A program made the position numbers and the translations under genes. A DNA stretch of 64,000 nucleotides, taken from NCBI GenBank assembly GCA_963823945.1, contig CAWGNK010000003.1:5732-69731 (forward strand), written 5' to 3'. Origin of the DNA: an uncultured Acidimicrobiaceae bacterium. GTDB lineage: Bacteria; Actinomycetota; Acidimicrobiia; Acidimicrobiales; Bog-793. The notes under the pieces were generated by a model. That model was not told the origin of the DNA. It made no database searches and was given only the letters and a program-made list of their open reading frames with translations. Below, piece by piece: positions 6,002 through 27,735 of this stretch; position 1 is the first letter of the stretch; each line of letters begins with the position of its first letter.

Positions 6002-9000
6002 CTAGCTCACAGTGAAGGCGCTGGAGTTGACCGCCGTCGTGACCCCGCTGATCCCGCTCGGCGTGGCTGTGAAGGTGTAGCTGCCCGTGGCAGTGACCAC
6101 GAGGTTGTTGAACGTCGCCACGCCGCTACTCAACGTGATCGTGGTGGTCCCCGAGGTGAAGCTCGTCTGCGGGCAGCCCGACTTGATGGATATGACCACC
6201 GACCCCGTCGCCGTCGTCACGACGTTGCCGTTCGCGTCCTCGACCGACACGGCGACGTTCGGGATGGAGCTGCCATGCGTTCCGGGGCCTGGCGCCGCCG
6301 GGGTGAAGGCGAGCTTGCTCGCCGCGCCGGCGATGATCGAGACGGCCGACGACGCCGGGGCCGACGTCAGCGAGCTGTCACTCGCCGTGAGCGTGTAGGA
6401 GCCGTCCGCCGCCGTCCCGGTGATCTTGCAAGCGGCGAAGGTGGCGACGCCGGCCGAGGCGGTTACCGCAAGGGCCGTGCAGCCGAGGGTGCCCTCGGTG
6501 GTCCCCCCATTGCCGGCCGTGTAGCCGTTGAGGGCAAGGGTCACAACGGTCGTGTTGTTGGTCACGACGTTGCCGTAGGCGTCCTCGACGTAGATCTTGG
6601 GCTGGGTGGCGAAGCTCGTTCCCTCGGTCACCCCGCCGACGGGCTGGACGTCCCAGCCCAGCTTGGTCGCCGTGCCGTAATTGATCGAGACCGATGACGA
6701 CGCCGGGGCCGCCGTCAGCGAGCCGTCGGTCGCCTTCAAGGTGTAGGTGCCGGCCGCCGCCGTGCCGGTGATCTGGCAGCCGGCGAAGGTGGCGACGCCG
6801 GCCACGGCGGTGACCGTGAGCGCCGTGCAGCCGAGGGTGCCCTGGGTGGTCCCCCCGTTGCCGGCCGTGTAGCCGTTGATCGCGAGCGTCACGCTGCTCG
6901 TGTCGCTGGTCACGACGTTGCCGTTGGCGTCCTCGACGTAGATGACCGGCTGGGTGGCGAAGTTCGTTCCCTCGGTCACGCCGCCGACCGGCTGGACGTC
7001 CCAGGCCAGCTTGCTCGCCGTGCCGGCGATGACCGAGACATTCGACGACGCCGGGGCCGCCGTCAGCGTGCCGTCGGTCGCCTTGAGGGTGTAGGTGCCG
7101 GCCGCCGCCGTGCCGGTGATCTTGCAGGCGGCGAAGGTGGCGACGCCGGCCGAGGCGGTGACCGTGAGGGCCGTGCAGCCGAGGGTGCCCGAGGTGGTTC
7201 CCCCGTTGCCGGCCGTGTAGCCGTTGAGGGCGAGGGTCACGCTGCTCGCGTTGTTGGTCACGACGTTGCCGTTGGCGTCCTCGACGTAGACGACCGGCTG
7301 GGTGGCGAAGTTCGTTCCCTCGGTCACGCCGCCGACCGGCTGGACGTCCCAGGCCAGCTTGGTCGCCGTGCCGTAGGTGATGGAGACGGCCGACGACGCC
7401 GGCGCCGCCGTCAGCGAGCCGTCGGTCGCCTTCAAGGTGTAGGTGCCGGCCGCCGCCGTGCCGGTGATCTGGCAGCCGGCGAAGGTGGCGACGCCGGCCG
7501 AGGCGGTGACCGTGAGGGCCGTGCAGCCGAGGCTGCCCTGGTTGGTTCCCCCGTTGCCGGCTGTGTAGCCGTTGATCGCGAGCGTCACGCTGCTCGTGTC
7601 GCTGGTCACGACGTTGCCGTAGGCGTCCTCGACGTAGATGACCGGCTGGGTGGCGAAGTTCGTTCCCTCGGTCACGCCGCCGACCGGCTGGACGTCCCAG
7701 ACCAGCTTGCTCGCCGTGCTGGCGATGACCGAGACATTCGACGACGCCGGGGCCGCCGTCAACGAGCCGTCGGTCGCCTTCAAGGTGTAGGTGCCGGCCC
7801 CCGCCGTCCCGGTGATCTGGCATCCGGCGAAGGTGGCGACGCCGGACGAGGCGGTGACCGTGAGGGCCGTGCAGCCGAGGGTGCCCTGGGTGGTCCCCCC
7901 GTTGCCGGCCGTGTAGCCGTTGATCGCGAGCGTCACGCTGCTCGCGTTGTTGGTCACGACGTTGCCGTTGGCGTCCTCGACGTAGATGACCGGCTGGGTG
8001 GCGAAGTTCGTTCCCTCGGTCACGCCGCCGACCGGCTGGACGTCCCAGGCCAGCTTGGTCGCCGTGCCGTAGGTGATGGAGACGGCTGACGACGCCGGGG
8101 CCGCCGTCAACGAGCCGTCGCTCGCCGTCAGGGTGTAGGTGCCGGCCGCCGCCGTGCCGGTGATCTGGCAGGCGGCGAAGGTGGCGACGCCGGCCGAGGC
8201 GGTGACCGTGAGGGCCGTGCAGCCGAGGGTGCCCTGGTTGGTTCCCCCGTTGCCGGCTGTGTAGCCGCTGATCGCGAGCGTCACGCTGCTCGCGTTGTTG
8301 GTCACGACGTTGCCGTTGGCGTCCTCGACGTAGATCTTGGGCTGGGTGCCAAAGCTCGTTCCCTCGGTCACGCCGCCGACCGGCTGGACGTCCCAGGCCA
8401 GCTTGGTCGCCGTGCCGTAATTGATCGAGACCGATGACGACGCCGGGGCCGCCGTCAGCGAGCCGTCGGTCGCCTTCAAGGTGTAGGTGCCGGCCGCCGC
8501 CGTGCCGGTGATCTGGCAGCCGGCGAAGGTGGCGACGCCGGCCACGGCGGTAACCGTGAGGGCCGTGCAGCCGAGGCTGCCCTGGGTGGTCCCCCCGTTG
8601 CCGGCCGTGTAGCCGTTGATCGCCAGCGTCACGCTGCTCGTGTCGCTGGTCACGACGTTGCCGTTGGCGTCTTCGACGTAGATGACCGGCTGGGTGGCGA
8701 AGTTCGTTCCCTCGGTCACGCCGCCGACCGGCTGGACGTCCCAGGCCAGCTTGCTCGCCGTGCCGGCGATGACCGAGACATTCGACGACGCCGGGGCCGC
8801 CGTCAGCGTGCCGTCGGTCGCCTTGAGGGTGTAGGTGCCGGCCGCCGCCGTGCCGGTGATCTGGCATCCGGCGAAGGTGGCGACGCCGGCCGAGGCGGTG
8901 ACCGTGAGGGCCGTGCAGCCGAGGGTGCCCGAGGTGGTTCCCCCGTTGCCGGCCGTGTAGCCGTTGATCGCCAGGGTCACGCTGCTCGCGTTGTTGGTCA

Positions 9001-12000
9001 CGACGTTGCCGTTGGCGTCCTCGACGTAGACGACCGGCTGGGTGGCGAAGTTCGTTCCCTCGGTCACGCCGCCGACCGGCTGGACGTCCCAGACCAGCTG
9101 GGTCGCCGTGCCGTAGGTGATGGAGACGGCTGACGACGCCGGGGCCGCCGTCAACGAGCCGTCGCTCGCCGTCAGGGTGTAGGTGCCGGCCGCCGCCGTG
9201 CCGGTGATCTGGCAGCCGGCGAAGGTGGCGACACCGGACGCGGCGCTGACCGTGAGGGCCGTGCAGCCGAGGGTGCCCTGGTTGGTTCCCCCGTTGCCGG
9301 CCGTGTAACCGTTGATCGCGAGCGTCACGCTGCTCGTGTCGCTGGTCACGACGTTGCCATAGGCGTCCTCGACGTAGATCTTGGGCTGGGTGGCGAAGTT
9401 CGTTCCCTCGGTCACGCCGCCGACCGGCTGGACATCCCAGACCAGCTTGGTCGCCGTGCTGGCTGTCACGGTGAACGCGCTGGAGTTGACCGCCGTCGTG
9501 ACCCCGCTGATGCCGCTCGGCGTGGCCGTGAAGGTGTAGCTACCCGCCGTGTCGACCACGAGGTTGGTGAAGTTCGCCACGCCGCTGCTCAACGTGATCG
9601 TGCTGGTCCCCGAGGTGAAGCTCGACTGTGGGCCCCCCGACTTGATGGACAGAACGACCGACCCCGTGGCCGCCGTCACGACGTTGCCGTTGGCGTCCTC
9701 GACCGACACCTCGACGTTCGGGATGACGGTGCCCGCCACGCCGGGACCGGGCGTCGCCGGGGTGAAGACAAGCTGGGTCGCCGCGCCGGCGATGACCGAG
9801 ACATTCGACGACGCCGGGGCCGCCGTCAGCGAGCCGTCGGTCGCCGTCAGCGTGTAGGTGCCGGCCGCCGCCGTGCCGGTGATCTTGCAGCCGGCGAAGG
9901 TGGCGACGCCGGCCGAGGCGGTGACCGTGAGGGCCGTGCAGCCGAGGGTGCCCGAGGTGGTTCCCCCGTTGCCGGCCGTGTAGCCGTTGATCGCCAGGGT
10001 CACGCTGCTCGCGTTGTTGGTCACGACGTTGCCGTTGGCGTCCTCGACGTAGACGACCGGCTGGGTGGCGAAGTTCGTTCCCTCGGTCACGCCGCCGACC
10101 GGCTGGACGTCCCAGACCAGCTGGGTCGCCGTGCCGTAGGTGATGGAGACGGCTGACGACGCCGGGGCCGCCGTCAACGAGCCGTCGCTCGCCGTCAGGG
10201 TGTAGGTGCCGGCCGCCGCCGTGCCGGTGATCTGGCAGCCGGCGAAGGTGGCGACACCGGACGCGGCGCTGACCGTGAGGGCCGTGCAGCCGAGGGTGCC
10301 CTGGTTGGTTCCCCCGTTGCCGGCCGTGTAGCCGTTGATCGCGAGCGTCACGCTGCTCGTGTCGCTGGTCACGACGTTGCCATAGGCGTCCTCGACGTAG
10401 ATCTTGGGCTGGGTGGCGAAGTTCGTTCCCTCGGTCACGCCGCCGACCGGCTGGACATCCCAGACCAGCTTGGTCGCCGTGCTGGCTGTCACGGTGAACG
10501 CGCTGGAGTTGACCGCCGTCGTGACCCCGCTGATGCCGCTCGGCGTGGCCGTGAAGGTGTAGCTACCCGCCGTGTCGACCACGAGGTTGGTGAAGTTCGC
10601 CACGCCGCTGCTCAACGTGATCGTGCTGGTCCCCGAGGTGAAGCTCGACTGTGGGCCCCCCGACTTGATGGACAGAACGACCGACCCCGTGGCCGCCGTC
10701 ACGACGTTGCCGTTGGCGTCCTCGACCGACACCTCGACGTTCGGGATGACGGTGCCCGCCACGCCGGGACCGGGCGTCGCCGGGGTGAAGACAAGCTGGG
10801 TCGCCGCGCCGGCGATGACCGAGACATTCGACGACGCCGGGGCCGCCGTCAGCGAGCCGTCGGTCGCAGTGAGCGTGTAGGTGCCGGCCGCCGCCGTCCC
10901 GGTGATCTTGCATCCGGCGAAGGTGGCGACGCCGGCCGAGGCGGTGACCGTGAGGGCCGTGCAGCCGAGGCTGCCCTGGTTGGTTCCCCCGTTGCCGGCC
11001 GTGTAGCCGTTGATCGCCAGGGTCACGCTGCTCGCGTTGTTGGTCACGACGTTGCCGTAGGCGTCCTCGACGTAGACGACCGGCTGGGTGGCGAAGTTCG
11101 TTCCCTCGGTCACGCCGCCGACCGGCTGGACGTCCCAGACCAGCTTGGTCGCCGTGCTGGCTGTCACGGTGAACGCGCTGGAGTTGACCGCCGTCGTGAC
11201 CCCGGCAATCCCGCTCGGCGTCGCAGTGAAGGTGTAGCTGCCCGCCGTGTCGACCACGAGGTTGGGGAACGTCGCCACGCCGCTGCTCAGCGGGATCGTG
11301 AGGGTCCCCGAGGTGAAGCTCGACTGCGGGCTCCCCGACTTGATCGACATGACAACAGACCCCGTGGCCGCCGTCACGACGTTGCCGTATGCATCCTCCA
11401 CCGACACCGCGACGTTCGGGATGGTGCTGCCCGCCGCGACGGGACCCGGACTGGCCGGGGTGAAGGCGAGCTGGGTCGCGGCAGCGGGCGTGACCGAGAT
11501 GCCCGGCTCGCTGCCTGTGATCGTCCCCGTCACCGTGTCGGTCGCGGTCAGGGTTTTCGCGCCACCCGCTACCGTCTTGAACGTCGCGCTGAAGGTGCCA
11601 ATCCCCGAGGTGAGCGTCGCGCTCGGCGGAAGAACGGCGGCCGCGTCATTGCTCGCCGTGATGCCGACCGTTCCCGCGTACCCGGTCGCCGTGTTGCCGT
11701 CGGCGTCGAGCGCCGTCACGGTGAAACTGTGACTCACCCCGGCGACCGTCGAGGTCGGGTAACCAGACACCGCCAACGCCGCCGCCGCTCCCGGCGTGAT
11801 ATTCACGGGGTTGACGTTGCTCGGCGCTGTCACCGTCGGGCTGGTGGCGCTGGAAGCCGTGAGCGTGTAGCCCGTCCCGACCTTGGTGATGGCGCAACCG
11901 GCGAAGCTCGCGACGCCGGCGGATGCCGTCGCCGTCAGGCCGCCCGTGCAGCTGAGCACGCCGCCGGCCGGGTTGTTGTTGATCGCGAGGGTGACCTGGT

Positions 12001-13294
12001 CGCTGCTGTCTGCCAGCACCGTGTTGCCATCGACATCCTGGATCGTCACCGCGATCGCGAAACTTCCCGTCCCGGCGGCCTGGATGTTCGACCCCGAGGC
12101 GGGCTGGGTCGTGAAAACGAGTCCCGCCGGGTTGCCCGCGGTGATGTTGAAGGAATTGGCATTTGTGGGCGCTTTCAGCGTCGGGCTGCTCGAGCTGGAA
12201 GCCGTGAGCGTGTAGCCGGTCCCGGTCTTCGTGATGGCGCAACCGGTGAAGCTCGCCACGCCGGCGGATGCCGTCGCCGTCAGGCCGCCTGTGCAGCTGA
12301 GCACACCGCCGCCCGGGTTGTTGTTGATCGCGAGGGTGACCTGGTCGCTGCTGTCGACAAGCACCGTGTTGCCATAGACGTCTTGGATCGCCACCGCGGC
12401 TGAGAAGCTGCCCGTTCCGGTGGCCTGGACGTTCGCCCCCGAGGCCGGTTGCGTGGAGAACGAGAGCCCGGAAGGGCTGCCCGCGGCGATGCTGAACGTG
12501 GCGCTCGTGGCCGTGGTCAGCGTGCCATCGGTCGCCGTGAGCGTGTAGCCCGTCCCTGCTGTCGTGAGGCTGCAGCCCGAGAAGGTGACGACGCCGTAGA
12601 ACTCGTTCCCCGCACACGTGGCCGACAGGGTTGCCCCGCTCGTCCCCGACCCCGCGGTGACCGTCAGGCTGACAGGGGAAAGGTCGGTCGTGACGATGTT
12701 GCCTGCGGCATCCTCGACGGCGACCACCGGCGGCGGCGAGAGGGCCGAGCCAGCGCTTACGCTACCGGGCTGCCCGATGAAGACCAGCTGCGTCGCCGCG
12801 CCCGGGACCGGGATTGGGTGGGCAAGGGGATCGTCGACGACGACGCTGATCTGGTAGACGGTCCCGTTATAGGTGACCGAGATGATGTCCAGCTGAGCCG
12901 CGTTGGGGACGCACGTCGTGCTGAACGTGGTGCCGTTCCAGTACTCCGCCGTGGAGACCTGCGCCGTGTAGCCACTCGGAAGGCTGAATTGCGACTGTGG
13001 CATCACGGCTCCGGGACAGGTGCCCCAGAACGAGCTCGATTGCTGCTGGAGCCAGGTGGTCGCCTCCTCGGCGGCACTTCTCAGTACGGTGTCGACTGTC
13101 GCCACGCTGCGGTAGTCGGACGAACCCCAGATCGACGTGCTGAACCCGAGCATGAGCGACGTCGACGCCAACCCGAGCACGAGCACCGCGACGATGACCT
13201 CGATGAGCGTGTCGCCGGCTGCCGACCTTCGGGAGGATGCACGGTCGTGTGGGCGAGCCTCACGCTCAACTAGAGGGTGAAGGTGTCGCCTCAT
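6002..13294 (-). CDS. giant type IV pilin-like (class III signal) protein with about 20 tandem Ig-like modules
   Basis: ORF track 6002..13345 (2447 aa). I prefer ATG 13294 (GAAGG lies 10 nt upstream); the alternative is GTG 13345. N-terminus ...RRSAAG|DTLIEVIVAVLVLGLASTSLMLGF has Gly-1, Glu+5 and a hydrophobic helix. Then about 150 aa of unique sequence, followed by 12 modules of WDVQPVGGVTEGT type, 4 of FTPA.PGP type and 4 divergent ones. Each is 100-115 aa with V.VEDA.GN.V and mostly a Cys pair. Confidence 0.85.
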   Translation of the reverse strand: MRRHLHPLVEREARPHDRASSRRSAAGDTLIEVIVAVLVLGLASTSLMLGFSTSIWGSSDYRSVATVDTVLRSAAEEATTWLQQQSSSFWGTCPGAVMPQSQFSLPSGYTAQVSTAEYWNGTTFSTTCVPNAAQLDIISVTYNGTVYQISVVVDDPLAHPIPVPGAATQLVFIGQPGSVSAGSALSPPPVVAVEDAAGNIVTTDLSPVSLTVTAGSGTSGATLSATCAGNEFYGVVTFSGCSLTTAGTGYTLTATDGTLTTATSATFSIAAGSPSGLSFSTQPASGANVQATGTGSFSAAVAIQDVYGNTVLVDSSDQVTLAINNNPGGGVLSCTGGLTATASAGVASFTGCAITKTGTGYTLTASSSSSPTLKAPTNANSFNITAGNPAGLVFTTQPASGSNIQAAGTGSFAIAVTIQDVDGNTVLADSSDQVTLAINNNPAGGVLSCTGGLTATASAGVASFAGCAITKVGTGYTLTASSATSPTVTAPSNVNPVNITPGAAAALAVSGYPTSTVAGVSHSFTVTALDADGNTATGYAGTVGITASNDAAAVLPPSATLTSGIGTFSATFKTVAGGAKTLTATDTVTGTITGSEPGISVTPAAATQLAFTPASPGPVAAGSTIPNVAVSVEDAYGNVVTAATGSVVMSIKSGSPQSSFTSGTLTIPLSSGVATFPNLVVDTAGSYTFTATPSGIAGVTTAVNSSAFTVTASTATKLVWDVQPVGGVTEGTNFATQPVVYVEDAYGNVVTNNASSVTLAINGYTAGNGGTNQGSLGCTALTVTASAGVATFAGCKITGTAAAGTYTLTATDGSLTAAPASSNVSVIAGAATQLVFTPATPGPGVAGTVIPNVEVSVEDANGNVVTAATGSVVLSIKSGGPQSSFTSGTSTITLSSGVANFTNLVVDTAGSYTFTATPSGISGVTTAVNSSAFTVTASTATKLVWDVQPVGGVTEGTNFATQPKIYVEDAYGNVVTSDTSSVTLAINGYTAGNGGTNQGTLGCTALTVSAASGVATFAGCQITGTAAAGTYTLTASDGSLTAAPASSAVSITYGTATQLVWDVQPVGGVTEGTNFATQPVVYVEDANGNVVTNNASSVTLAINGYTAGNGGTTSGTLGCTALTVTASAGVATFAGCKITGTAAAGTYTLTATDGSLTAAPASSNVSVIAGAATQLVFTPATPGPGVAGTVIPNVEVSVEDANGNVVTAATGSVVLSIKSGGPQSSFTSGTSTITLSSGVANFTNLVVDTAGSYTFTATPSGISGVTTAVNSSAFTVTASTATKLVWDVQPVGGVTEGTNFATQPKIYVEDAYGNVVTSDTSSVTLAINGYTAGNGGTNQGTLGCTALTVSAASGVATFAGCQITGTAAAGTYTLTASDGSLTAAPASSAVSITYGTATQLVWDVQPVGGVTEGTNFATQPVVYVEDANGNVVTNNASSVTLAINGYTAGNGGTTSGTLGCTALTVTASAGVATFAGCQITGTAAAGTYTLKATDGTLTAAPASSNVSVIAGTASKLAWDVQPVGGVTEGTNFATQPVIYVEDANGNVVTSDTSSVTLAINGYTAGNGGTTQGSLGCTALTVTAVAGVATFAGCQITGTAAAGTYTLKATDGSLTAAPASSSVSINYGTATKLAWDVQPVGGVTEGTSFGTQPKIYVEDANGNVVTNNASSVTLAISGYTAGNGGTNQGTLGCTALTVTASAGVATFAACQITGTAAAGTYTLTASDGSLTAAPASSAVSITYGTATKLAWDVQPVGGVTEGTNFATQPVIYVEDANGNVVTNNASSVTLAINGYTAGNGGTTQGTLGCTALTVTASSGVATFAGCQITGTAGAGTYTLKATDGSLTAAPASSNVSVIASTASKLVWDVQPVGGVTEGTNFATQPVIYVEDAYGNVVTSDTSSVTLAINGYTAGNGGTNQGSLGCTALTVTASAGVATFAGCQITGTAAAGTYTLKATDGSLTAAPASSAVSITYGTATKLAWDVQPVGGVTEGTNFATQPVVYVEDANGNVVTNNASSVTLALNGYTAGNGGTTSGTLGCTALTVTASAGVATFAACKITGTAAAGTYTLKATDGTLTAAPASSNVSVIAGTASKLAWDVQPVGGVTEGTNFATQPVIYVEDANGNVVTSDTSSVTLAINGYTAGNGGTTQGTLGCTALTVTAVAGVATFAGCQITGTAAAGTYTLKATDGSLTAAPASSSVSINYGTATKLGWDVQPVGGVTEGTSFATQPKIYVEDAYGNVVTNNTTVVTLALNGYTAGNGGTTEGTLGCTALAVTASAGVATFAACKITGTAADGSYTLTASDSSLTSAPASSAVSIIAGAASKLAFTPAAPGPGTHGSSIPNVAVSVEDANGNVVTTATGSVVISIKSGCPQTSFTSGTTTITLSSGVATFNNLVVTATGSYTFTATPSGISGVTTAVNSSAFTVS
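6030..11250 (-). repeat. coding tandem repeats (about 315-345 bp units) of the giant pilin-like gene
   Basis: Periodic protein modules are visible in the translation. Repeated antisense and alternate-frame ORFs in the track (6087, 9549, 10572 and 11247 on the plus strand; 6378..8867 on the minus strand) reflect the same DNA periodicity. Confidence 0.9.
8868..10867 (-). repeat. two near-identical direct copies with 1,023-bp period (8868-9844 and 9891-10867)
   Basis: Line-by-line comparison at offset 1023. The copies are identical except for one mismatch I found (9308 A vs 10331 G, synonymous). Plus-strand ORFs 9549..9857 and 10572..10880 have identical translations. A 341-aa protein block is repeated exactly. 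Confidence 0.9.
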
Positions 13295-13463
13295 GAAACT
13301 CGGCCTTCGGGTGCTGTGGTGACGGGCGGAACAGCCGACCCGCACCCAGAAACGGAAGCGCTGACCATCCGAGGTGTCTCGTCAGACGAAGAATCGTCAT
13401 CGCGGCACTCGACCCCGGCGCAGCCGCGAGCTCCGGGGGCGGATGAGAGGATCGTCGCGCGCG

Positions 13464-14897
13464 TCATGGCAGAAGCACACCCACGAATATCGCCTCGAGC
13501 CCGGCCCCGACCATGTCCACGGTCAGCGTCTTCGGCGACGGCACCTCCAACATGACGGTGCCCGTCTTGTCCGAACTGACCGATGCCGCACACTCGACCG
13601 AGTTCGTGCCGACCCCGGTCAATCCGGCCCCGGGACCCGGGTCGGCGCAGGCGTTGCCGATCTCGGAGGACGGGCTGTCGGGAAGCAGGCTGAACGCCTT
13701 GCCAGAGTCCGTCGTCCAGGTCAGCGACTCGCCGGCGTCCGTGGACTCGGCGTCTCCGGTCACGAGCTCCCAGCCCGTCGCCGCGTTGCCGTTCGAGTCC
13801 GTCAGCTCGATGTTCGTGATGTAGACGTACGAGGTGGAGCCTTCCTCGTTCTGGTAGAGCGCCGGGTTGCCGGCGATACCCGTGTAGAAACCGTTGTTGC
13901 CGAGAAAGGCCTCACTCGTGGGGGGGTCAAAGTAGGTCGGGATGGGGCACGCGGCGACCGCCGGGACGGTCGGTGCCGTCGCCGTCTCGCCGGGGCACAC
14001 GATGACCGAGCCGGTGGCCGGCGTCGTCGTCGTTCTGAGGCAGAACGACAGCGTGTACGGAGTGTTTGCGACGGCCGCCGTCATGTTCTGGCACGTGCCG
14101 TACTGCGCCTGTTGGCCGGCCGTCGCGTTGTTGTACTCGTTGAAGAGGAACTTGGTGAAGTCCACGAAGCACAGAGTCGAGGAGTAGGTGCCCGTCCCGG
14201 GTGTGGTGAATCCACAGCTCGTCGTGGTGGGGGCAGCCACGCCGGAGAGCTGACCCGAGGACGAGCTCGCCCTGGGGACCGCGAACAACGTGTACGGGTA
14301 GGAGCTTCCCGGTTCCGTGACCCCGAGGGTGACGCTCGTCACGCCCACCGCGGAGACCCAGCCGGAAGCCGCGGCGGTGGCCTTGCTGGTCGGGAGGACC
14401 GCAGGGGCTAGTTGACCCGAGGGGATGTCGTTGGAGACGGTGACGGAGGTCGTGGGGGTGGTGGACGCTCCCGCGGCGCAGTAGCGGCGCACCAGTGAGA
14501 AGCCCGTGCCGTTCGCGGTCTCGACGTAGGAAACGACGGACTGGTACTGACCGGTCTGCTGGTTCAGGTTCCATTCCAGCCCCAGCAGCTGGGTCCCCGT
14601 TCCGCACTGCGTCGCGGTGGCGCTCGTGGTGAGGTCGGACGCGCTTTCGACGTCCTGCTCGTAATAAGCGGAAACGGTCTGGGCGTCCGCCGCGTCGGAG
14701 ACCCTGCTCGCGACGTTGTGCTGGAGCGAGAGAAGCGCGAGGAGCGCGAGGGCAAGTCCGCCGACGATGATCGGGACGATCGCGGAGACGATGATCATCT
14801 CGATCAGCGTGAATCCATCCCCGTCCCGCGCGGGAGAAACCGTGGCGCGCCCGCACCGCAAGGCGCGGGCCACCCCTCCAGTCCGACGACCCCTCAC
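13464..14897 (-). CDS. large type IV pilin-like protein (477 aa) with prepilin leader
   Basis: N-terminus MRGRRTGGVARALRCGRATVSPARDGDG|FTLIEMIIVSAIVPIIVGGLALALLALL has the canonical G|FTLIE motif with Glu+5. The rest is Ser/Thr/Gly-rich and predicted extracellular. It lies immediately upstream of the giant gene on the same strand (118-nt gap). Confidence 0.85.
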   Translation of the reverse strand: MRGRRTGGVARALRCGRATVSPARDGDGFTLIEMIIVSAIVPIIVGGLALALLALLSLQHNVASRVSDAADAQTVSAYYEQDVESASDLTTSATATQCGTGTQLLGLEWNLNQQTGQYQSVVSYVETANGTGFSLVRRYCAAGASTTPTTSVTVSNDIPSGQLAPAVLPTSKATAAASGWVSAVGVTSVTLGVTEPGSSYPYTLFAVPRASSSSGQLSGVAAPTTTSCGFTTPGTGTYSSTLCFVDFTKFLFNEYNNATAGQQAQYGTCQNMTAAVANTPYTLSFCLRTTTTPATGSVIVCPGETATAPTVPAVAACPIPTYFDPPTSEAFLGNNGFYTGIAGNPALYQNEEGSTSYVYITNIELTDSNGNAATGWELVTGDAESTDAGESLTWTTDSGKAFSLLPDSPSSEIGNACADPGPGAGLTGVGTNSVECAASVSSDKTGTVMLEVPSPKTLTVDMVGAGLEAIFVGVLLP

Positions 14898-15364
14898 AGT
14901 TCCCTCACCTGATGCCGCTCGAACGACATGGTGGATGGGCCGAATTCTGCGACGACCGACGCGGCAGCCTCCCTGGCGGGGGCGTCGAGGTTGTCATTTC
15001 AGCCGGGTTCGCAAGTTCCTGCGCGCTCTCAGCGGGCTCAGAACCGTAGAACATGGCGGCCGCCTCAAAGGTATAGGTCGAACTTCACGTATTCTCAGCC
15101 GCCGATTCTACCTCGGTGCCACGAATCTCTTCGGCACAATTGGCGCCGCGACCTGGCGGATGATTCATCCTGGTCAGGAGTCGGCGAGACCGAGCCATCT
15201 CTGTCGCACAAACGCGTCATGCCTGTCGGAGTACGGCATGTGCCCTACTGCTCAACGATCGTCGGGATGCTCGAAGGCATTCGTCTGACGGCGCGACGCT
15301 TGACGTAGAGTTCCTCTCGGCGGAGCATTTGTCGAGAGATATTGGTTCCACGAAGGGCAAGGCC

Positions 15365-16873
15365 GTGAGAGGCATGCCAGAAGAGCCGTCGCACGCCAGC
15401 GGGTGTCGGCCTCGAGTCACCGCGCCCGCCCGGGCGGGGGACAAGCGCGGCGAAGCGGGTGCGATCCTCGTCCTGGCGCTCGTCTTTCTGCTCATCACAG
15501 TCATCATCGTCGGTTCCCTCGCCAGCGGGATCACGAACGACCTCAACAACTCCAATACGTTCAAGTCGGTCCGCTCGCTCCAGTACGCGGCGAGAAGCGC
15601 GACCGATCTGGCGATCCAGATGATCCGCTACACCCCCCTGCTGACGACGTCGGAAACCCTGAATGCGAGCCCGCCGAGCTACTGCTGGGGGAACGGCCCG
15701 GTTTCCGAGGTCACCAACATCGACGGCGTGCCCGCGATGGCCGTCTGGTGCAGCACGGCGTGGACGCCAACGAGTGCCGACACCCGGACCGTGACCTTCT
15801 CGACTTGCCCGGTCTCTGGGTCTGAGACGGCAACGCTGTGCGCGTCGCAGCCGCTGCTTCAGGCGGTGGTCTCCTTCGACGACTACCCCGCGGGCGTCAG
15901 CTCGCCGTCGACGGCGGAGTGTGTCGTCTACTGCGGCACGACAATGGCCGTGGACAGCTGGGTGTGGAATCCGGTGGTCCCGACGGTCTCCGCCATAAGC
16001 CCCTCGACGGGGCCGATCACCGGTGGCACGTCGGTGACGATCACCGGGACAGGCTTCGTGACTGGTACAACTGTCAACTTCATCGAGGAATCGGGCGGCA
16101 CCCCGGTCTCCGACAATGTGGTCCTCCCCGCCACGGGCGTGACGGTGAATGGACCGACATCGCTCACGGTCGCCGCGCCCGCCGCGACGGAGGGAACCAC
16201 CTACTTCGTCACCGTCACGACAGCGACGGGAAACAGTGCGTACAGCACCAGTGGCAATGACGTCTTCACCTATTCCCCGGTCGCGCCAACCATCACGGCA
16301 GTGAGTCCCGCTTCGGGGGGGATCGCAGGCGGCAATTCCGTGACGATCTCGGGGACCGGGTTCTACAGCGGCGCAACCGTCGACTTCGTGCAGGAGTCTG
16401 GTGGTTCTCCAGTGGTCGGTGGAGTGACCGCCGGTGCTACCTACGTGTCGGTGTCTGGGTCCACCACGATCACCGCCGTCTCGCCGGCGGTGACCTCGCC
16501 CGGAACCTACTTCGTCACCGTCGCGACGCCCGCGGGCACGACCCCCACCGGAGCCAATGATGTCTTCACCTATTCACTGCTGGTGCCCATCGTTTCCTCC
16601 ATCAGCCCATCGTCGGGCCCGATCGCGGGCGGTACGGCGGTGACGATCAGCGGGACCGGGTTCGTGAGCGGCGACACCGTCAGCTTCACCCCGGAATCCA
16701 ACTACAGCCCTGTCGGCAGCGCGATCGCGGCGACCGGGGTGACGGTCGTCGGGTCCTCCACGATCACGGTCACTTCGCCGGCCGTGGCCTCGACGGGAAC
16801 GTACTTCGTCACCGTCACCACTCCCGGCACGGGTATGAGCAGTTACTTCCCCATCTACACGTACTCGTCCTGA
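15365..16873 (+). CDS. PilX_N-like membrane-anchored protein with three C-terminal IPT/TIG domains
   Basis: ORF 15329..16873; start ambiguous (TTG 15329, GTG 15365, ATG 15374). KRGEAGAILVLALVFLLITVIIVGSLASG resembles the PilX N-terminal anchor. Three units of about 100 aa read ISPS.GPI.GGT.VTI.GTGF...TYFVTV...VFTYS. Confidence 0.8.
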   Translation: MRGMPEEPSHASGCRPRVTAPARAGDKRGEAGAILVLALVFLLITVIIVGSLASGITNDLNNSNTFKSVRSLQYAARSATDLAIQMIRYTPLLTTSETLNASPPSYCWGNGPVSEVTNIDGVPAMAVWCSTAWTPTSADTRTVTFSTCPVSGSETATLCASQPLLQAVVSFDDYPAGVSSPSTAECVVYCGTTMAVDSWVWNPVVPTVSAISPSTGPITGGTSVTITGTGFVTGTTVNFIEESGGTPVSDNVVLPATGVTVNGPTSLTVAAPAATEGTTYFVTVTTATGNSAYSTSGNDVFTYSPVAPTITAVSPASGGIAGGNSVTISGTGFYSGATVDFVQESGGSPVVGGVTAGATYVSVSGSTTITAVSPAVTSPGTYFVTVATPAGTTPTGANDVFTYSLLVPIVSSISPSSGPIAGGTAVTISGTGFVSGDTVSFTPESNYSPVGSAIAATGVTVVGSSTITVTSPAVASTGTYFVTVTTPGTGMSSYFPIYTYSS

Positions 16874-17024
16874 CCTCGCCCCTCCGCGTCGGTCAGTTCC
16901 GGACGGCTGGATGATTCGCCGGTCGGACCGCGCTGGCAAGCGGACCGCGCGTCGAAGGGGCAACCCGGGTCGACCACAGCGCCCGGCGTGCCGACCCCGC
17001 GAATCCGACGGTACCGTTCAGCAC

Positions 17025-17348
17025 ATGTTCGGTCGACCGCGCCTCGTCGAACGGACATGCTCGGCCTGCGGCGCGTCTCGGCTGCTGACTGGCCGACAGG
17101 CGCGACTTTCCGCCCGCCCGCCGCACCTCCGCATGCGGGGAACGGGCCTCTCCATGGGGATTTCGAACACCCGGGCCCCAGGCGAATTCGGCGCGGGCCT
17201 GGACCCGGCCGCCGACACCGAGGCGCTGTTCGCGACACGGGACCTCCTCCGCAACTGCCCCGTTTGCTCGTCTCGGGAGTTCGCGGATCACAGGGTCACG
17301 AGGAATAGGCCGGCCTCGGCCGACGCCTCCCGCGCGCTGTTGCCCTGA
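17025..17348 (+). CDS. possible small zinc-ribbon protein (107 aa)
   Basis: Internal ATG of ORF 16911..17348. Third-position G/C is about 85% by my reading. Two CxxC pairs (CSACG and CPVCS) about 70 aa apart. No SD seen. Confidence 0.35.
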   Translation: MFGRPRLVERTCSACGASRLLTGRQARLSARPPHLRMRGTGLSMGISNTRAPGEFGAGLDPAADTEALFATRDLLRNCPVCSSREFADHRVTRNRPASADASRALLP

Positions 17349-17439
17349 GCGAACGGCCGGCCGAGTCCGAAGTCTCTTGACAGGCGCGGGTCCCACCTCG
17401 GCGCGCCGCCGGTGCCGCGGCGACGCGGGCGTGCGGCCT

Positions 17440-17665
17440 GCTTTCAGGTACACGTCGAGGAACGAGATGAACCGCTGCCGCGCGTCCCGAGCCGAGGGCT
17501 CGTGGTGCCCCTAGGCCATGAACCTGGCCGTTTCGGAGAAGAGAGCGGCAAGACGGTCGTGCGCGCCCTCGTGGTCGTTGAGGAAGTCGTGCCCGGTGTC
17601 GGGAAACTCCTCTATTTCGTGGGACACATCGGCCGCGGCGAGTGCCCGCTCCAGCCGGCTGGCGG
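17440..17665 (-). pseudogene. remnant of the 3' end of a dienelactone-hydrolase-like gene with an in-frame stop
   Basis: Own translation: LERALAAADVSHEIEEFPDTGHDFLNDHEGAHDRLAALFSETARFMA*GHHEPSARDARQRFISFLDVYLK. It resembles the DLH C-terminus (YPGxGHxF ... DAWxRxxxFLxxxL). A TGA lies just upstream, a TAG is internal, and no N-terminal part is present. Confidence 0.35.
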
Positions 17666-17710
17666 CTCACCGGAGCGACCGGTCTCTCGGCCGTCGCAGG
17701 CGACGATCGG

Positions 17711-18706
17711 TCAGAAGGCGTCGTCCGCCCGGGTCGCGAGTGAACGGTAGTGCTGTCGCCAGATCAGCCGATAGAGGCGGACCTTGCGCGGAATGGCGCG
17801 CACACCGGGCAGGAAGGGCACGAGCGCGAGGAGGACGGTGAGCACGACCATGATCGCCCAAACGAGCGCGTCGGCATTCGTCGAGGTGGTGAACGGCGGG
17901 ACCTGATACCAGAGCGTGTACAACCAGAGCCACGATTGACCGGGGAAGTTCCCGGTCTCGTTCATCATCCCCCACTGGGATCCCTGGAGATGCTGCACGG
18001 CGGCGAGGTTCGCCATGTACGTGCCGTCGGCGATGAACAGCAAAGGCTTCGTGTAGTCGGTCCCGTAGAACTGCTTCGAGCTCACGAGCGCGCCGTCGAG
18101 GGCACCACTGCGGGCCATCATCGTCAGCGCACCGATCATCTCGGCGACCGGCCCGTAGCTCCCGGGTCGGATGATCAGCCTCCCGCCGGCGAACCGGGCG
18201 TGCCCGAGCGCGGCGCCGTAGGCATTCGTCCATCCCTGTTCGGTCCTGACCGAAGCACCCGTGTACTGCCTGATCGCCGCGGAAAGGGCCGGGTCGGAGG
18301 GAAGGGTCTTCAGCGGCGCAATGACGTCGTCGAGCGCCGTGTTGATCGGGTGGTGAACACCCATGATGCTCTCGAGCGACAACGGGCCGATCGATTGGCT
18401 CGCTCCCGGGGTGCTGTTGTAGGGGGGCCCGTACGTGGCGGTCGGACTCGTGCCGGCGAGCTCGGTGACGGCGGTGCGCGCGAAGTCGAGCGGCGCGTGT
18501 TGCGACCAGCTCTTGATCGTGACCGGAGGCACGTCGGGCGAGGACAGGACGATCGCCAGCCCGAGGGTGAGGAGCAGCACGACGAGGAACGCGGCGGTGA
18601 ACTCCTTGACGATGTCGTAGGGCACGTACCGGCCGTGCCACTCCTCGACGTCGCGATCGGGCCGGAACCGCCTGGTCCGCCCGGGACGGGTTGGGGGCAC
18701 GCTCAT
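17711..18706 (-). CDS. membrane protein of unknown function, downstream partner of cytochrome b (possible divergent subunit-IV-like part)
   Basis: 331-aa ORF whose start overlaps the cytochrome b stop by 4 nt. One N-terminal TM (FTAAFLVVLLLTLGLAIVL), about 220 aa predicted outside, and C-terminal TMs (SWLWLYTLWYQVPPF, ALVWAIMVVLTVLLALVPFLPG). Confidence 0.75.
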   Translation of the reverse strand: MSVPPTRPGRTRRFRPDRDVEEWHGRYVPYDIVKEFTAAFLVVLLLTLGLAIVLSSPDVPPVTIKSWSQHAPLDFARTAVTELAGTSPTATYGPPYNSTPGASQSIGPLSLESIMGVHHPINTALDDVIAPLKTLPSDPALSAAIRQYTGASVRTEQGWTNAYGAALGHARFAGGRLIIRPGSYGPVAEMIGALTMMARSGALDGALVSSKQFYGTDYTKPLLFIADGTYMANLAAVQHLQGSQWGMMNETGNFPGQSWLWLYTLWYQVPPFTTSTNADALVWAIMVVLTVLLALVPFLPGVRAIPRKVRLYRLIWRQHYRSLATRADDAF

Positions 18707-21653: not shown

Positions 21654-22472
21654 CTGAAGCCGATCCCGGTCGTATTCCACCTCGGCCCGCTGCAGGTCCA
21701 CACCTACGGCATCGGGCTCGCGCTCACGTTCTGGTTCGGCTACTGGTACCTCGCGAAACGGCTGCGCCACCACGGCTACCCCGACGCCTGGCTCGGGATC
21801 ACAGTCGCCTGGGTGGTCGTCGCGGCGATCGTCGGGGCGCGGGCGGCGCACGTCATCGCCAACCTCGGCTCCTACTCGCACGACCCGGCCGGGATCTTCG
21901 CGATCTGGCACGGCGGCCTCTCGTCGTTCGGAGGGCTGGCCCTCGGGATTCCGGTGGGCTTTGTCTCAGCACACCGCCGCTGTCCTCAACTCCGGCTCGG
22001 TACCGCGGCGGACCTCGTCGCCCCGGTTCTCGCCTGCGCCTGGGCGGTCGGCCGCCTACTCGGTCCACAGTTCGAGGTGGCGGGCGGCGGGAAGCCGACG
22101 TCGGCCTGGTACGGGATGTACTACGCCGGCGAGGTCGGCAAACGCCTCCCCGTACCGTTGTTCCAGGCGGCAGAATGCTTCGCGATCTTCGCCGTCGCGC
22201 TGTGGGTCGAACGCGCCGTGGCACGACGGCGGGGTCCCGTCGGCATGGTGACGGCGGTCGTCGTCGGGCTGTGGGGACTCAGCCGCTTCATCGACGAGTA
22301 CTTCTGGTTGACCCACGACAACGGTACCGACGCGGTCGAGATCGCCTCGCTCGCGCTCTTCGCCATCGGCGTCGCGGCGGCCCTGGCCCTCTGGCGGGCT
22401 GATCACCGGCGCCGATCGAACCCACTTGTCGCTACCGACAGCGAACCGGCAAGATCGGGGACACCAACATGA
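21654..22472 (+). CDS. lgt: prolipoprotein diacylglyceryl transferase
   Basis: C-terminal part of ORF 20961..22472. PVVFHLGPLQVHTYGIGLALTFWFGYWYL aligns with the Lgt N-terminus, and WHGGLSSFGGLALG is present. Start unresolved: no ATG/GTG/TTG lies near the conserved N-terminus. CTG 21654 sits 6 nt after GGAGG (21643-21647). The only canonical option is GTG 21489, which overlaps the MFS stop but crosses a low-GC3 stretch. Confidence 0.8.
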   Translation: MKPIPVVFHLGPLQVHTYGIGLALTFWFGYWYLAKRLRHHGYPDAWLGITVAWVVVAAIVGARAAHVIANLGSYSHDPAGIFAIWHGGLSSFGGLALGIPVGFVSAHRRCPQLRLGTAADLVAPVLACAWAVGRLLGPQFEVAGGGKPTSAWYGMYYAGEVGKRLPVPLFQAAECFAIFAVALWVERAVARRRGPVGMVTAVVVGLWGLSRFIDEYFWLTHDNGTDAVEIASLALFAIGVAAALALWRADHRRRSNPLVATDSEPARSGTPT

Positions 22473-23185
22473 CACGCCTCCAGCCCCGGCCCACACCTGG
22501 AGGGCGCGCCGCCGCCACGCGCCGCCGGGGACCGTGGTCCGTTCTTGCGATCACACTCGCCCTCATCGTCACGACCGCCGGACCGGTCGAGGCGTCGGGT
22601 GGCGGCGCGACGATCCCCCCGTACACCGCGACGGTTTCGGCGGTGACCCGGGCGACTGTCCCCTACTCGTGGCGGCCCGGTTGCCCGGTGGGGCCGAACC
22701 AGCTCCGGCTCATCCGCCTGCGCTACTACGGCTTCGATCACCGGAGCCACATCGGGAGGATCATCGTCAACGCCTCCGTCGTGAACGCCGTCATCGCCGT
22801 CTTCGGGCGCCTCTACGCGGCGCGTTTCCCGATCCGGCGCATGGTTCCCGTGGACGCCTACCACGGCCACGACCCGGCCTCGATGGCGGCGGACAACACG
22901 TCGGGCTTCAACTGCCGTCGGGCGGTGGCACCGGGCCCGCCCCAGTGGTCGGTCCACGCCTACGGCGAGGCGATCGACGTGAACCCGGTCGAGAACCCCT
23001 ACGTCGACGCCGGTGTCGTCATGCCCACCGCCGGGGCGCGGTACCTCGACAGAGCCGACGTCCGGCCCGGCATGGCTGTCCCGGGGGGGACGCTCGTCGA
23101 AGCCTTCGCCGCGGTCGGCTGGTATTGGGGCGGACGCTGGACGGGCTCGCCCGACTACCAACACTTCTCATCGACCGGTGGCTGA
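22469..23185 (+). CDS. secreted peptidase M15 family (VanY/LD-carboxypeptidase-like)
   Basis: 238 aa. The ATG overlaps the lgt stop (ATGA). Arg-rich signal peptide. Zinc-ligand motifs HAYGEAIDVNP and GWYWGGRW...DYQHF. Confidence 0.8.
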   Translation: MTRLQPRPTPGGRAAATRRRGPWSVLAITLALIVTTAGPVEASGGGATIPPYTATVSAVTRATVPYSWRPGCPVGPNQLRLIRLRYYGFDHRSHIGRIIVNASVVNAVIAVFGRLYAARFPIRRMVPVDAYHGHDPASMAADNTSGFNCRRAVAPGPPQWSVHAYGEAIDVNPVENPYVDAGVVMPTAGARYLDRADVRPGMAVPGGTLVEAFAAVGWYWGGRWTGSPDYQHFSSTGG

Positions 23186-23212
23186 GTCCACCGGGACCGC
23201 CGCGACACCACG

Positions 23213-23968
23213 GTGACGCCCGCCGCCGGAATCGGCCACGCGGCAGCGGTTCTCGCCCTCGTCGCGTTGGCGGCGCTCGCCGCCTCAACAGGGGCGGACC
23301 GCGCTGTCGGCGCCGCCGCCACCCGCCGGGCCGCGTCTCCGTGCGGCGCCAACCTCGCCGACGGCCTGCCCGGCACCACGCGCGCCTCGCAACTCGTCGT
23401 CGTCGAGGCGCCGTCGACCTCCTCGACGACGGCGACGGTGACGCTCTGGCACCGGCAGAGAGGGTGCTTCACCCAGGTCGGCGGCCCGTGGCCGGCACTG
23501 CTTGGCCGGCATGGTCTCTCGAGGCACCACCTCGAGGGGGACGGGACGACGCCGATCGGCACCTACGGGATCGGGCCCGAGATGTACGGCGTCGCGCCCG
23601 ATCCCGGGCTGGCATACCCCTACCACCGCCTCGTCTGCGGTGACTGGTGGGACGAGGACCCGACGACGCCGAGCTACAACCGCTTCGTCCACGTACCCTG
23701 CGGCGTCCGGCCGCCGTTCGGCGGCGACAGTGAGGCGCTCTGGACCGAGACGACCGCCTATCGCTACTTCGCCCTGATCGAGTACAACACCGCGCCGATC
23801 GTGCCCGGACGGGGCTCGGCGATCTTCCTCCACGTCTCGACGGGAGGACCGACGGTGGGTTGTGTCAGCCTTGCTGAGCCCGCGCTCGTCCACACGCTGC
23901 GCTGGCTGCGCCCGGCGGAACACCCCCTCGTCGTCATCGGTACGAAGACGACCCTGCGCGACGTCTGA
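23213..23968 (+). CDS. L,D-transpeptidase (YkuD) family protein
   Basis: 251 aa with a signal peptide. Catalytic motif GSAIFLHVSTGGPTVGCVSL (His ... Gly-Cys). Confidence 0.8.
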   Translation: MTPAAGIGHAAAVLALVALAALAASTGADRAVGAAATRRAASPCGANLADGLPGTTRASQLVVVEAPSTSSTTATVTLWHRQRGCFTQVGGPWPALLGRHGLSRHHLEGDGTTPIGTYGIGPEMYGVAPDPGLAYPYHRLVCGDWWDEDPTTPSYNRFVHVPCGVRPPFGGDSEALWTETTAYRYFALIEYNTAPIVPGRGSAIFLHVSTGGPTVGCVSLAEPALVHTLRWLRPAEHPLVVIGTKTTLRDV

Positions 23969-24230
23969 CCCTCCGCGCCGGGCCGGGACTCCGGACACGC
24001 CCCTCCAGCCACGCGGATTCGCCGAGCTCCCTGGGAGTCGGCCAGCCATCGATGTCGAGGGCGTCTCGTCTCGCCGACGCCGCAACCGGTCGCGGGGCGG
24101 GCCCGGGACCGTGTCACGGTGCCGGCGGACGGAAACTTGGGGCCACACCGTGGAGTCACGACTCTCACACCCTGCGGCGGTAGCCTGTCATCGTGCTGGT
24201 ACTTTCCACCGGCGGTATCGAGCGGTCCCC

Positions 24231-26129: not shown

Positions 26130-26141
26130 CCGGGGTAGCTC

Positions 26142-27350
26142 ATGGCCCGTTTCACATACAAGGCGATCGACAAGTCCGGCAAGACCGTGTCGGGCGTGCT
26201 CGCCGCACCGACAGCTGGCGCCGCCCACCTCATGGTGCTCGCCCGTGGGCTGCAGCCCATTGCCGTCGAGGAGAGGACGAGCGTCCTCCAGTACGAGCTC
26301 ACGAAGAAGAAGGTGCCCCGCGAGGAGGTCATGCACTTTTCGCGCCAGTTGGGCGTCTTCGTGAAGGCTGGCATCCCGATCCTCGACTCGCTCGAGATCA
26401 TCGAGGCCGAGACGACCGACAAGCTGTTCAAGAAGGTTCTCCACGACATGGTCGATGCGCTCGCCGCCGGCGACACGTTCGCCCTCGCGGCCGAGGCGCA
26501 CCCTGAGGCGTTCCCCCCGTACTACGTGGGCATGCTCTCCTCGGCCGAACTCGCCGGCAACCTCGACACCGTTCTCACCCAGCTCGCCGACTACATGGAA
26601 CGGGACGCGGATGCACGCGGCAAGGTCACCGCAGCGATGATCTATCCCGGGGTCGTGCTGGGGATGTCAATCGTCACCTTCGTCGTGCTCGGCGTATTCG
26701 TCATGCCACGGTTCAAGGTGTTCTTCCAGTCGCTCCACGCGAACCTCCCGCTCCCGACGAAGATGCTGCTCGACCTCACGAACTTCATCGAGACGAACTG
26801 GTACTTCCTCTTCGGGGGCATCGCCGCCGTCGTGATCCTCATCGCGATCGCCTTTCGCTCGAAGCAGGGCAGGGCACGCATCGACTCCTGGGTGCTGCGC
26901 ATGCCCGTCATCGGGGATCTCATCCAGCACGTCATGGTCGAGCGCATCTGCCGGATCCTGTCTTCGATGATCCAGGCGGGAGTGTCCCTCCCCGAGGCGA
27001 TGACGGTCACGTCCGAATCCGTGTCGAACGTCGTGTACAAGCATGGACTCGACACCATCCGGGACGAGATGCTCGAGGGGCGCGGCCTTTCGGAGCCCGT
27101 CGCGAGCACGGACCTGTTCCCGAGCGCCGCGCGCCAGATGATGCGCGTCGGCGAGGAGACCGGAACGCTCGACGAGCAGCTCACGGTCGCCGCCACGTAC
27201 TACGCACGCGAGCTCGATTCCAAGATCAAGCGCTTCACTGGCCTCTTCGAACCCGCGATCATCATCGTCATGGGGGTCGTCGTCGGATTCGTCGCCATCG
27301 CCCTCATTTCCGCGATGTACGGCATCTACCGCCAGGTGAAGGTCACGTAG
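26142..27350 (+). CDS. pilC: type IV pilus platform protein PilC (GspF family)
   Basis: 402 aa. Two T2SSF repeats (FSRQLGVFVKAGIPILDSL; ICRILSSMIQAGVSLPEAM) and three TM segments. Confidence 0.9.
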   Translation: MARFTYKAIDKSGKTVSGVLAAPTAGAAHLMVLARGLQPIAVEERTSVLQYELTKKKVPREEVMHFSRQLGVFVKAGIPILDSLEIIEAETTDKLFKKVLHDMVDALAAGDTFALAAEAHPEAFPPYYVGMLSSAELAGNLDTVLTQLADYMERDADARGKVTAAMIYPGVVLGMSIVTFVVLGVFVMPRFKVFFQSLHANLPLPTKMLLDLTNFIETNWYFLFGGIAAVVILIAIAFRSKQGRARIDSWVLRMPVIGDLIQHVMVERICRILSSMIQAGVSLPEAMTVTSESVSNVVYKHGLDTIRDEMLEGRGLSEPVASTDLFPSAARQMMRVGEETGTLDEQLTVAATYYARELDSKIKRFTGLFEPAIIIVMGVVVGFVAIALISAMYGIYRQVKVT

Positions 27351-27735
27351 TTCGCTTCAGCTCTCGCGGACCCTCGCCCCAGCCGGACCCTCCGTGATTG
27401 ACGTCCATTCCAGTCGGCGCAAGGAAGTGTGTCCGGCTTTCGTCTTGCCCCCTAGCCAGCCACCGCATTTTCGCAAATATCGCCTGGCGCGACTAGACGG
27501 CGAGCAGCCCTGGGCGGGAGAGACGCGGGTCGTCCGCGGGTCGCGGCTACCCTGCGTACCTGGCCAAGACGAGACCCGCGACCCCGATGGGGTCAAATGC
27601 GCCCTGGCGGCTGACACATGTTGATCATTGCTCATGCGTCACATGGATCAAAATCCGCCACTTCGCGGATGGCCAGGGCTACTCTTCGTCCGTAGCCCGT
27701 TAGAGCCATCGATCTGAAGAAAGGTACCAGCCATC

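Follow-up and report, generated by a model that had tools for sequence, protein, structure and literature searches.

We describe three linked genes in a stretch of 64,000 nucleotides of DNA from an uncultured Acidimicrobiaceae bacterium (hereafter, the window). The genes lie between positions 6002 and 16873 and encode a giant protein, a protein of 477 amino acids and a protein with IPT/TIG domains. Alignments show that all three proteins start with a predicted class III-type signal that is followed by a small pilin-like module, and profile matches show that each bears a putative grafted extracellular module, namely, a CshA_NR2-like domain, a stalk of 20 Ig-like domains or three TIG domains. 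In relatives, the three genes are conserved as a cassette located within or beside the type IV pilus (T4P) genes pilB-pilC-pilA-pilT-pilD. We consider it likely that the products are three modular minor pilins of the Acidimicrobiales T4P, which are processed by PilD and form a priming complex at the pilus tip; the fibrillar stalk of this complex varies greatly in length.

The GC content of the window is 70%, and the GC content at the third codon position (GC3) was used to tell true genes from spurious open reading frames (ORFs). According to the ORF list and GC3, three genuine genes occur within 6002-16873, two on the minus strand and one, divergent, on the plus strand, and their GC3 values of 0.84-0.93 indicate real coding sequence. 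The ORF positions are those given in an earlier note on this DNA, and GC3 confirms that they are coding. The giant modular pilin gene is found at 6002-13345 on the minus strand (2,447 amino acids as the maximal ORF; GC3 0.93). It starts 118 nt downstream of the ORF of the bimodular pilin gene, which occupies 13464-14897 on the same strand (477 amino acids as the maximal ORF and 469 amino acids according to the gene caller). The Glu5-less pilin-like TIG gene is located at 15374-16873 on the plus strand and is supported by the public gene call and by three TIG matches; its likely start is the ATG at 15374, which yields 499 amino acids, and its maximal ORF (15329-16873) corresponds to 514 amino acids.

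The N-terminus of the 477-amino acid protein, ...RDGDG↓FTLIEMIIVSAIV, contains the class III signal G↓FTLIEM, in which the arrow stands behind the conserved Gly. The profile TIGR02532 matches this protein with 20.7 bits, which is above the cut-off of 16.3 and bears out the prepilin motif that the earlier note had reported directly upstream of the giant gene. Both the Gly at position -1 (G28) and the Glu at position +5 (E33) are invariant among 71 homologues, and N_methyl is matched in 42 of them. The signal (Gly28 at 14814-14816, followed by FTLIEM) and the predicted pilin module extend over 14265-14816 of the minus strand, as delimited by TIGR02532 and an AlphaFold2 (AF2) model. This model was built from the 71-sequence alignment and has a mean predicted local distance difference test (pLDDT) score of 80.7. 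In it, a 55-residue helix (residues 31-85) leads into a beta-sheet (88-206), and a linker of low confidence (212-225) then connects to a domain that extends to residue 477 and is all-beta over 227-475. The C-terminal beta-sandwich module (residues 225-477; 13467-14225, minus strand) is CshA_NR2-like according to the model and PF18651. When the isolated residues 225-477 were scanned, PF18651 (CshA_NR2) matched with 28.0 bits (cut-off 24, E 3e-6) over profile positions 29-195 of 196; the match was missed in the full-length scan and seen when the domain was scanned alone. CshA_NR2 is also matched in 35 of the 71 homologues at E<=0.01. The partner domain GEVED is absent, and the protein ends with the NR2-like domain, no further Pfam domain being present. 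The family has more than 518 homologues, which range from 406 to 558 amino acids among the 120 listed, and all of its named members are labelled Acidimicrobiales or prepilin-like.

In the giant protein, the N-terminus ...RRSAAG↓DTLIEVIVAVLVL harbors the class III signal G↓DTLIEV. The likely start of the protein is the ATG at 13294, which is codon 18 of the maximal ORF. Orthologue alignment and hhalign place the leader, the signal (Gly44 at 13214-13216, followed by DTLIEV) and a predicted pilin module of approximately 140 amino acids with two conserved Cys at 12800-13294 of the minus strand. All 34 aligned orthologues share the G, D, L and E of the signal without exception; (S/R)E(A)G↓DTL(I/V)E is a recurrent motif among the orthologues of the giant, and a looser pattern of it was found in 67 orthologues. 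A homologue search with the pilin module provided only four usable proteins; at E<=1e-10, the N-terminal module heads 274 cluster representatives of 150-2,351 amino acids. On the identical public contig, the automatic gene call begins the giant at codon 54 and cuts off the signal motif. Because the G↓DTL(I/V)E motif upstream of this codon recurs and is invariant in the 34 aligned orthologues, the start at codon 54 is almost certainly wrong. Automatic annotation therefore overlooks the signal of the giant, since this gene call starts past it and one orthologue has been named "trimeric autotransporter adhesin" by the Joint Genome Institute (JGI).

The remainder of the giant (6005-12799, minus strand) is a predicted stalk of 20 Ig-like domains, which were delimited by repeat finding with Tandem Repeats Finder (TRF) and by Pfam profiles. 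Fourteen of these domains are 116 amino acids long and contain a Cys pair; another four have a length of 109 amino acids. In the gene, TRF detects a period of 348 bp with 9.1 copies and 90% identity. Moreover, codons 847-1528 (8763-10808) consist of a 1,023-bp tandem duplication over three Ig-like domains, the two copies of which are identical at 1016 of 1023 nt (99.3%). This identity indicates a very recent expansion or ongoing recombination, and the assembled repeat count is uncertain for the same reason. Glyco_hydro2_C5 (GH2_C5) matches the whole giant with 96.7 bits, and the matches of single stalk units to GH2_C5, Invasin_D3 and Big_1 are all below threshold. Across species, the mature length of the orthologues varies from 344 to 3,205 amino acids. 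The stalk may also be of a different make, as in L055 (11320-19599; six MBG_2 stretches) and L041 (11140-21066; CarboxypepD_reg and Ig-like domains), where L numbers denote the loci of relatives described below. The orthologue of L075 (2,361 amino acids) has no Pfam match at all.

The third protein has the N-terminus ...KRGEAG↓AILVLALVFLLITV, in which the Gly of GEAG↓AILVLALVFLL is followed by a hydrophobic stretch. Position +5 is occupied by Leu or another hydrophobic residue in every aligned member of the family, which is therefore without Glu5, like the K-type minor pilins. According to alignment, hhalign and an AF2 model, a degenerate class III-like signal (Leu in place of Glu5) and a pilin-like module with six conserved Cys are predicted at 15458-15973 of the plus strand. 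The model of this N-terminal domain of approximately 170 residues (pLDDT 78.9) consists of a 59-residue helix and a four-stranded sheet, and an alpha-domain of the GspK type is not seen in it. No match of TIGR02532 or PF07963 to the protein was found. The three IPT/TIG domains that the earlier note had read in this gene are recovered by PF01833 in three stretches at 15974-16870 of the plus strand (E 5e-22; 78.1 bits against a cut-off of 20.9). The N-terminal domain has 83 homologues, and the orthologues of the gene encode from none to several TIG domains and measure 145-644 amino acids counted from the anchor. The earlier note had also described the anchor as PilX_N-like. This identity was not upheld, since PF14341 is unmatched in the window protein and is matched only below threshold (E 0.01-1) in 6 of 43 homologues. 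PilX_N, TadE and DUF7875 were each rejected as an assignment for the N-terminal domain because all were below threshold, and the GspK profiles and NCBIfam did not match the protein. Despite failing the PilX_N/GspK profile test, the protein probably acts like a K-type cap. The view that Ig-fold modules are present on all three proteins is not supported for the 477-amino acid protein, the module of which is CshA_NR2-like and contains no recognised Ig domain.

In hhalign alignments, the leader, the Gly and the alpha1 helix of the three families are in register, with probabilities of 91.5 for the giant versus the 477-amino acid family and 89 for the giant versus the TIG family. The Gly of the TIG family falls on the signal Gly of the giant, and Leu stands at the Glu5 position. 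The N-terminus of the major pilin PilA, ...LDQEG↓FTLIELLIVIII, is given for comparison. AF2 models cover two of the three proteins, namely, the 477-amino acid protein and the N-terminal domain of the TIG protein, and in both, a long helix at the N-terminus leads into an antiparallel beta-sheet. According to the published definition, a modular pilin has an N-terminal pilin module, a linker and one or more domains without a specific role in T4P biology (PMC8179133), and this is the architecture that we find here.

A scan of one genome per species yielded 122 relatives, and 78 loci were examined. All of these loci come from peat and soil metagenome-assembled genomes (MAGs) with the label Acidimicrobiaceae, Acidimicrobiales or Actinomycetota. 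The usual order of the cassette is the 477-amino acid pilin, the giant and the TIG gene. A homologue of the N-terminal module of the giant starts between -200 and +400 bp from the end of the 477-amino acid homologue in 75 of the 77 testable loci. A homologue of the TIG gene is present in all 63 loci with enough flank (61 downstream on the same strand and two, L002 and L003, inverted upstream); the loci without one are those in which the contig stops short of it. A small pilin gene after the TIG gene was rejected as a regular member of the cassette because it occurs in only 8 of 37 loci. In 32 of the 78 loci, pilB, pilC, pilA, pilT or pilD is found within 10 kb of the cassette. A pilB-pilC-cassette-pilA-pilT operon is present in each of L022-L025, L050, L062 and L080, and several loci continue to pilD; an example on a 5.49-Mb contig encodes products of 531, 1,469 and 208 amino acids between pilC and pilA. 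The three genes thus travel together wherever the flank allows, a pattern that the earlier note had proposed to look for in related genomes. Furthermore, a motif scan of the 64-kb window detected pilin-motif genes only in the cassette and in pilA. Together with the linkage, this result supports the suggestion in the earlier note that three oversized pilin-like proteins stand in place of the usual set of small minor pilins.

In the window, pilB starts 7 kb from the cassette, and the earlier note had described the module as separate from the pil machinery and possibly accessory. Neither description is supported. The divergent layout displaced from pilB by 7 kb is limited to the window and its nearest relatives (L001-L003), which indicates a local rearrangement rather than the mark of an accessory module; in relatives, the cassette is conserved and often lies between pilC and pilA. 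In the two nearest relatives of the window (L002 and L003), a second cassette has a short middle gene of approximately 345 amino acids, and the genome of the window may likewise hold a second cassette elsewhere.

Several observations weigh against a pilin complex at the pilus tip. The evidence throughout is computational and consists of the analysis of sequences from MAGs. Asp at position +1, as in the giant, is unusual for a prepilin. To our knowledge, a pilin of 2,400 amino acids at a pilus tip is without precedent, and such a protein would need to cross the cell wall. PilX_N (PF14341) has no match to the TIG protein of the window at E<=0.1 or at E<=1. When the two AF2 models were compared with the PDB by Foldseek, no match was obtained at E<=0.001 (best E-values of 4.9e-3 and 0.9, probability <=0.28, with ComZ and EpsI as weak matches only), and we therefore draw no equivalence to H, I, J or K. 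When PDB sequences were searched with profiles of the three families, solved pilins (geopilin and MshA) were matched over the N-terminal helix only and none over the globular parts. Homologues of PilM, PilN and PilO were not recognised in the window. In 46 of the 78 loci, no machinery gene is present within 10 kb, the giant filling most of the downstream flank, and certain MAGs contain two or three paralogous cassettes (L002 and L019; L003 and L027; L044, L077 and L078).

Other explanations were also weighed. The three proteins might be surface adhesins that use a pilin-type helix simply as an anchor and do not belong to a long pilus. PilD would process them, and they would remain membrane-bound or be carried by a very short pseudopilus, so that the stalk would span the cell wall like that of an ordinary fibrillar adhesin. 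The giant is indeed built as such an adhesin, with an anchor and a repeat stalk of variable length, and the JGI name of one orthologue agrees with this. Cassettes that have no machinery gene within 10 kb, and MAGs with several copies, also speak for it. However, Glu5, which does not vary in two of the three proteins, serves filament assembly and not membrane anchoring. The cassette is also frequently embedded between pilC and pilA, and a strictly conserved trio with one Glu5-less member is what marks a priming complex (PMC9934059). We therefore regard a purely anchoring role as unlikely.

Two further explanations concern the reality of the signals and of the giant itself. If the proteins were ordinary secreted or signal-anchored surface proteins, then their pilin-like motifs would have arisen by chance and would have no link to T4P. 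The failure of N_methyl (PF07963) to reach its threshold in the giant (14 bits against 21.2), its absence from the TIG protein and the lack of a significant structure match to a solved pilin are compatible with this possibility. Chance is nevertheless difficult to reconcile with Gly-1 and Glu5 motifs that are invariant over tens of orthologues of only 35-60% identity, with family profiles that align in register and with genes that are linked to pilB, pilC, pilA, pilT and pilD, and we consider it very improbable. Alternatively, the giant might be an assembly artefact or a decaying gene, its length resulting from misassembled tandem repeats. Its repeats are 90-99% identical, the short-read contig of the same organism (L001) breaks off within the repeat array, and some orthologues are interrupted by frameshifts. 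Yet the 7.3-kb ORF is uninterrupted and has a GC3 of 0.93, orthologues of 1,000-3,205 amino acids occur in dozens of independent MAGs, including on long contigs and complete chromosomes, and independent protein clusters reach 2,351 amino acids; an artefact of this kind is hardly credible. Both of these explanations are thus made unlikely by the invariant motifs, the uninterrupted ORF of high GC3 and the many long orthologues.

For the priming complex that we favor, the signals, modules and linkage shown above suggest a mechanism that is modelled on the HIJK complexes and on PilABC of Streptococcus sanguinis (PMC9934059). All three proteins would be inserted into the membrane in a Sec-dependent manner and then cleaved by PilD behind the conserved Gly. 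Lacking Glu5, the TIG protein would serve as the cap (K-like or PilA-like), and its alpha1 helix and those of the other two would bring the three together in a staggered assembly on the PilC platform. This assembly would prime the PilB-driven polymerisation of PilA and would hence arrive at the pilus tip, where the CshA_NR2-like binding domain, the three TIG domains and an Ig-like stalk tens of nanometres long would be displayed. PilT-driven retraction would then draw the cell towards the bound target. In a monoderm without an outer-membrane secretin, a bulky tip cargo of this type would be feasible, and the highly similar DNA repeats would render the length of the stalk evolvable. A more far-reaching interpretation, which we offer as possible rather than probable, is that the T4P priming complex of the order is built wholly of modular pilins. 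One true filament subunit of 2,400-3,200 residues would then be a pilin-anchored, periscope-like fibrillar adhesin, and the pilus would be an extendable, retractable carrier of a stalk of approximately 70-100 nm and of separate binding modules.

The T4P machinery of the window is encoded in one block on the plus strand (23862-29424). It contains pilB (23862-26129; Pfam T2SSE/MshEN), pilC (26142-27350; Pfam T2SSF), the major pilin gene pilA (27736-28248; Pfam N_methyl) and pilT (28354-29424; Pfam), and NCBIfam agrees. The prepilin peptidase gene pilD is located at 31828-32601 on the minus strand (A24_N_bact E 1.8e-36; Peptidase_A24). Between pilT and pilD, a polytopic membrane protein of 713 amino acids is encoded at 29643-31784 on the plus strand, and it adjoins pilT and pilD in L006 and L018 as well. 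This protein has no Pfam or PDB match, and its sole match is a weak one to an NCBIfam "putative glycosyltransferase" family. Because it is polytopic and without a PDB or Pfam match, a fusion of PilM, PilN and PilO was rejected as its identity; with TfpW/PilO in mind, we presume that it may be a GT-C-type pilin glycosyltransferase. Directly upstream of pilB (22469-23968, plus strand), genes for an M15 D-Ala-D-Ala carboxypeptidase-like protein and for a YkuD L,D-transpeptidase are found, as in L003, and these enzymes may alter the cell wall to accommodate the pilus.

The divergent intergenic region between the bimodular pilin gene and the TIG gene (14898-15373) measures 431-476 bp depending on the choice of the TIG-gene start codon, and its GC content is 0.605-0.61 compared with 0.70 for the window. 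In the shorter version (14898-15328; 431 bp; GC 0.61), it corresponds to the lower-GC region of approximately 430 bp that had been noticed before. The promoters of both transcription units are presumably located in this region. An Rfam scan of it found no riboswitch or other known RNA family, and consensus scans for sigma-70-like promoters and terminators yielded no more matches there than chance, no sigma-70-like consensus being present.

On the other side of the cassette, the glycosidases that the earlier note had placed on the flank are GH114 and GH1. The GH114 ORF start (2872) overlaps a tRNA, and the true start therefore lies further downstream. Two tRNA genes (among 422-510, 546-1175 and 2857-2930) flank an integrase of the insertion sequence (IS) type (rve) and a methyltransferase to the left of GH114, GH1 and the cassette. 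This area looks like an insertion hot spot, which would fit the local rearrangement of the cassette. Beyond the TIG gene, 16874-17710 contains no ORF with coding-type GC3. Within it, approximately 270 nt (17444-17710) are 77% identical to L003 at the DNA level, and the best translated matches shift frame. They represent a decayed gene, as the earlier note had proposed, or else conserved non-coding DNA ahead of a 331-amino acid gene of unknown function (17711-18706). At 45282-46505 on the plus strand, an IS110-family transposase gene is present, and a match to the Rfam small RNA Ms_AS-4 lies antisense inside it (46103-46184, minus strand).

The closest known system is PilA/PilB/PilC of S. sanguinis, a monoderm, in which one Glu5-less and two modular minor pilins form a predicted tip complex that also primes assembly (PMC9934059, PMC8179133). 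Both systems have three minor pilins encoded together (within the T4P locus in S. sanguinis), one of which lacks Glu5. However, all three proteins are modular here, including the Glu5-less one, and the grafted modules are a CshA_NR2-like domain, 20 Ig-like domains and three TIG domains instead of vWA and a ConA-like lectin. In addition, one subunit is approximately five times larger here, and no sequence similarity was detected past the N-terminal helix. The sets GspH/I/J/K of the type II secretion system and FimU-PilVWX with PilY1 of the type IVa pilus, both of diderms, are likewise operon-encoded sets of minor pilins with a Glu5-less cap, and they prime the filament and present an effector at the tip (PMC9934059). 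Unlike these sets, the cassette consists of three genes and not four, and the PilX_N and GspK profiles are unmatched. Among the window genes tested, there is no PilY1-like protein, and the adhesive parts are fused to the pilins. CofB (of the type IVb pilus) and ComZ of Thermus are large minor pilins with an extra beta-rich domain behind the pilin module and a proposed tip location (PMC8179133). Unlike the three-gene cassette, they are single large subunits of approximately 500 amino acids. No significant similarity in sequence or structure to either was found; the Foldseek match of the TIG-protein model to ComZ (6qvi) is weak (E 1.9, probability 0.09).

Among fibrillar adhesins, those of the CshA type contain the NR2 beta-sandwich whose profile is matched by the C-terminal module of the 477-amino acid protein. 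CshA_NR2 is a ligand-binding domain, and its GEVED partner has been called invariable (PMC10952558), whereas GEVED is absent here. Moreover, the anchor of our proteins is a predicted type IV pilin and not a sortase motif, and the binding domain and the stalk are located on two separate polypeptides, the repeat stalk being encoded next door. The CshA sequence of Streptococcus gordonii was not retrieved in the profile search of the PDB. Periscope proteins are surface proteins of variable length. The giant resembles them in its long tandem arrays of near-identical stalk-encoding DNA repeats and in the wide variation in length among its orthologues, but this variation is found between species and not strains, and its anchor is a pilin. 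A literature search on type IV pili of Acidimicrobiia, confined to one searchable library, found no paper.

Modular minor pilins are a recent explanation for new functions of simple type IV filaments (PMC8179133). Here, every member of the cassette is modular, and the cassette has been conserved throughout an order of uncultured bacteria that live in soil and peat. The 2021 survey of modular pilins covered more than 1,200 proteins and 264 architectures, and its multi-domain extreme has 860 residues and 12 repeats (PMC8179133). One subunit of the cassette is far larger (2,400-3,200 residues), and the composition of its stalk varies among orthologues. If the more far-reaching interpretation is true, then these proteins would be the largest pilins known, and the tip complex would tolerate a cargo of more than 250 kDa. 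Pili and fibrillar adhesins, which are usually kept apart, would be bridged by such proteins. For half of the predicted fibrillar adhesins, no anchor is known, and surveys of these proteins list no pilin anchors (PMC8286594). Some of these cases may be explained by anchoring through a type IV pilin. Finally, the cassette offers testable targets for the attachment of the abundant Acidimicrobiales of peatlands to surfaces or polymers.

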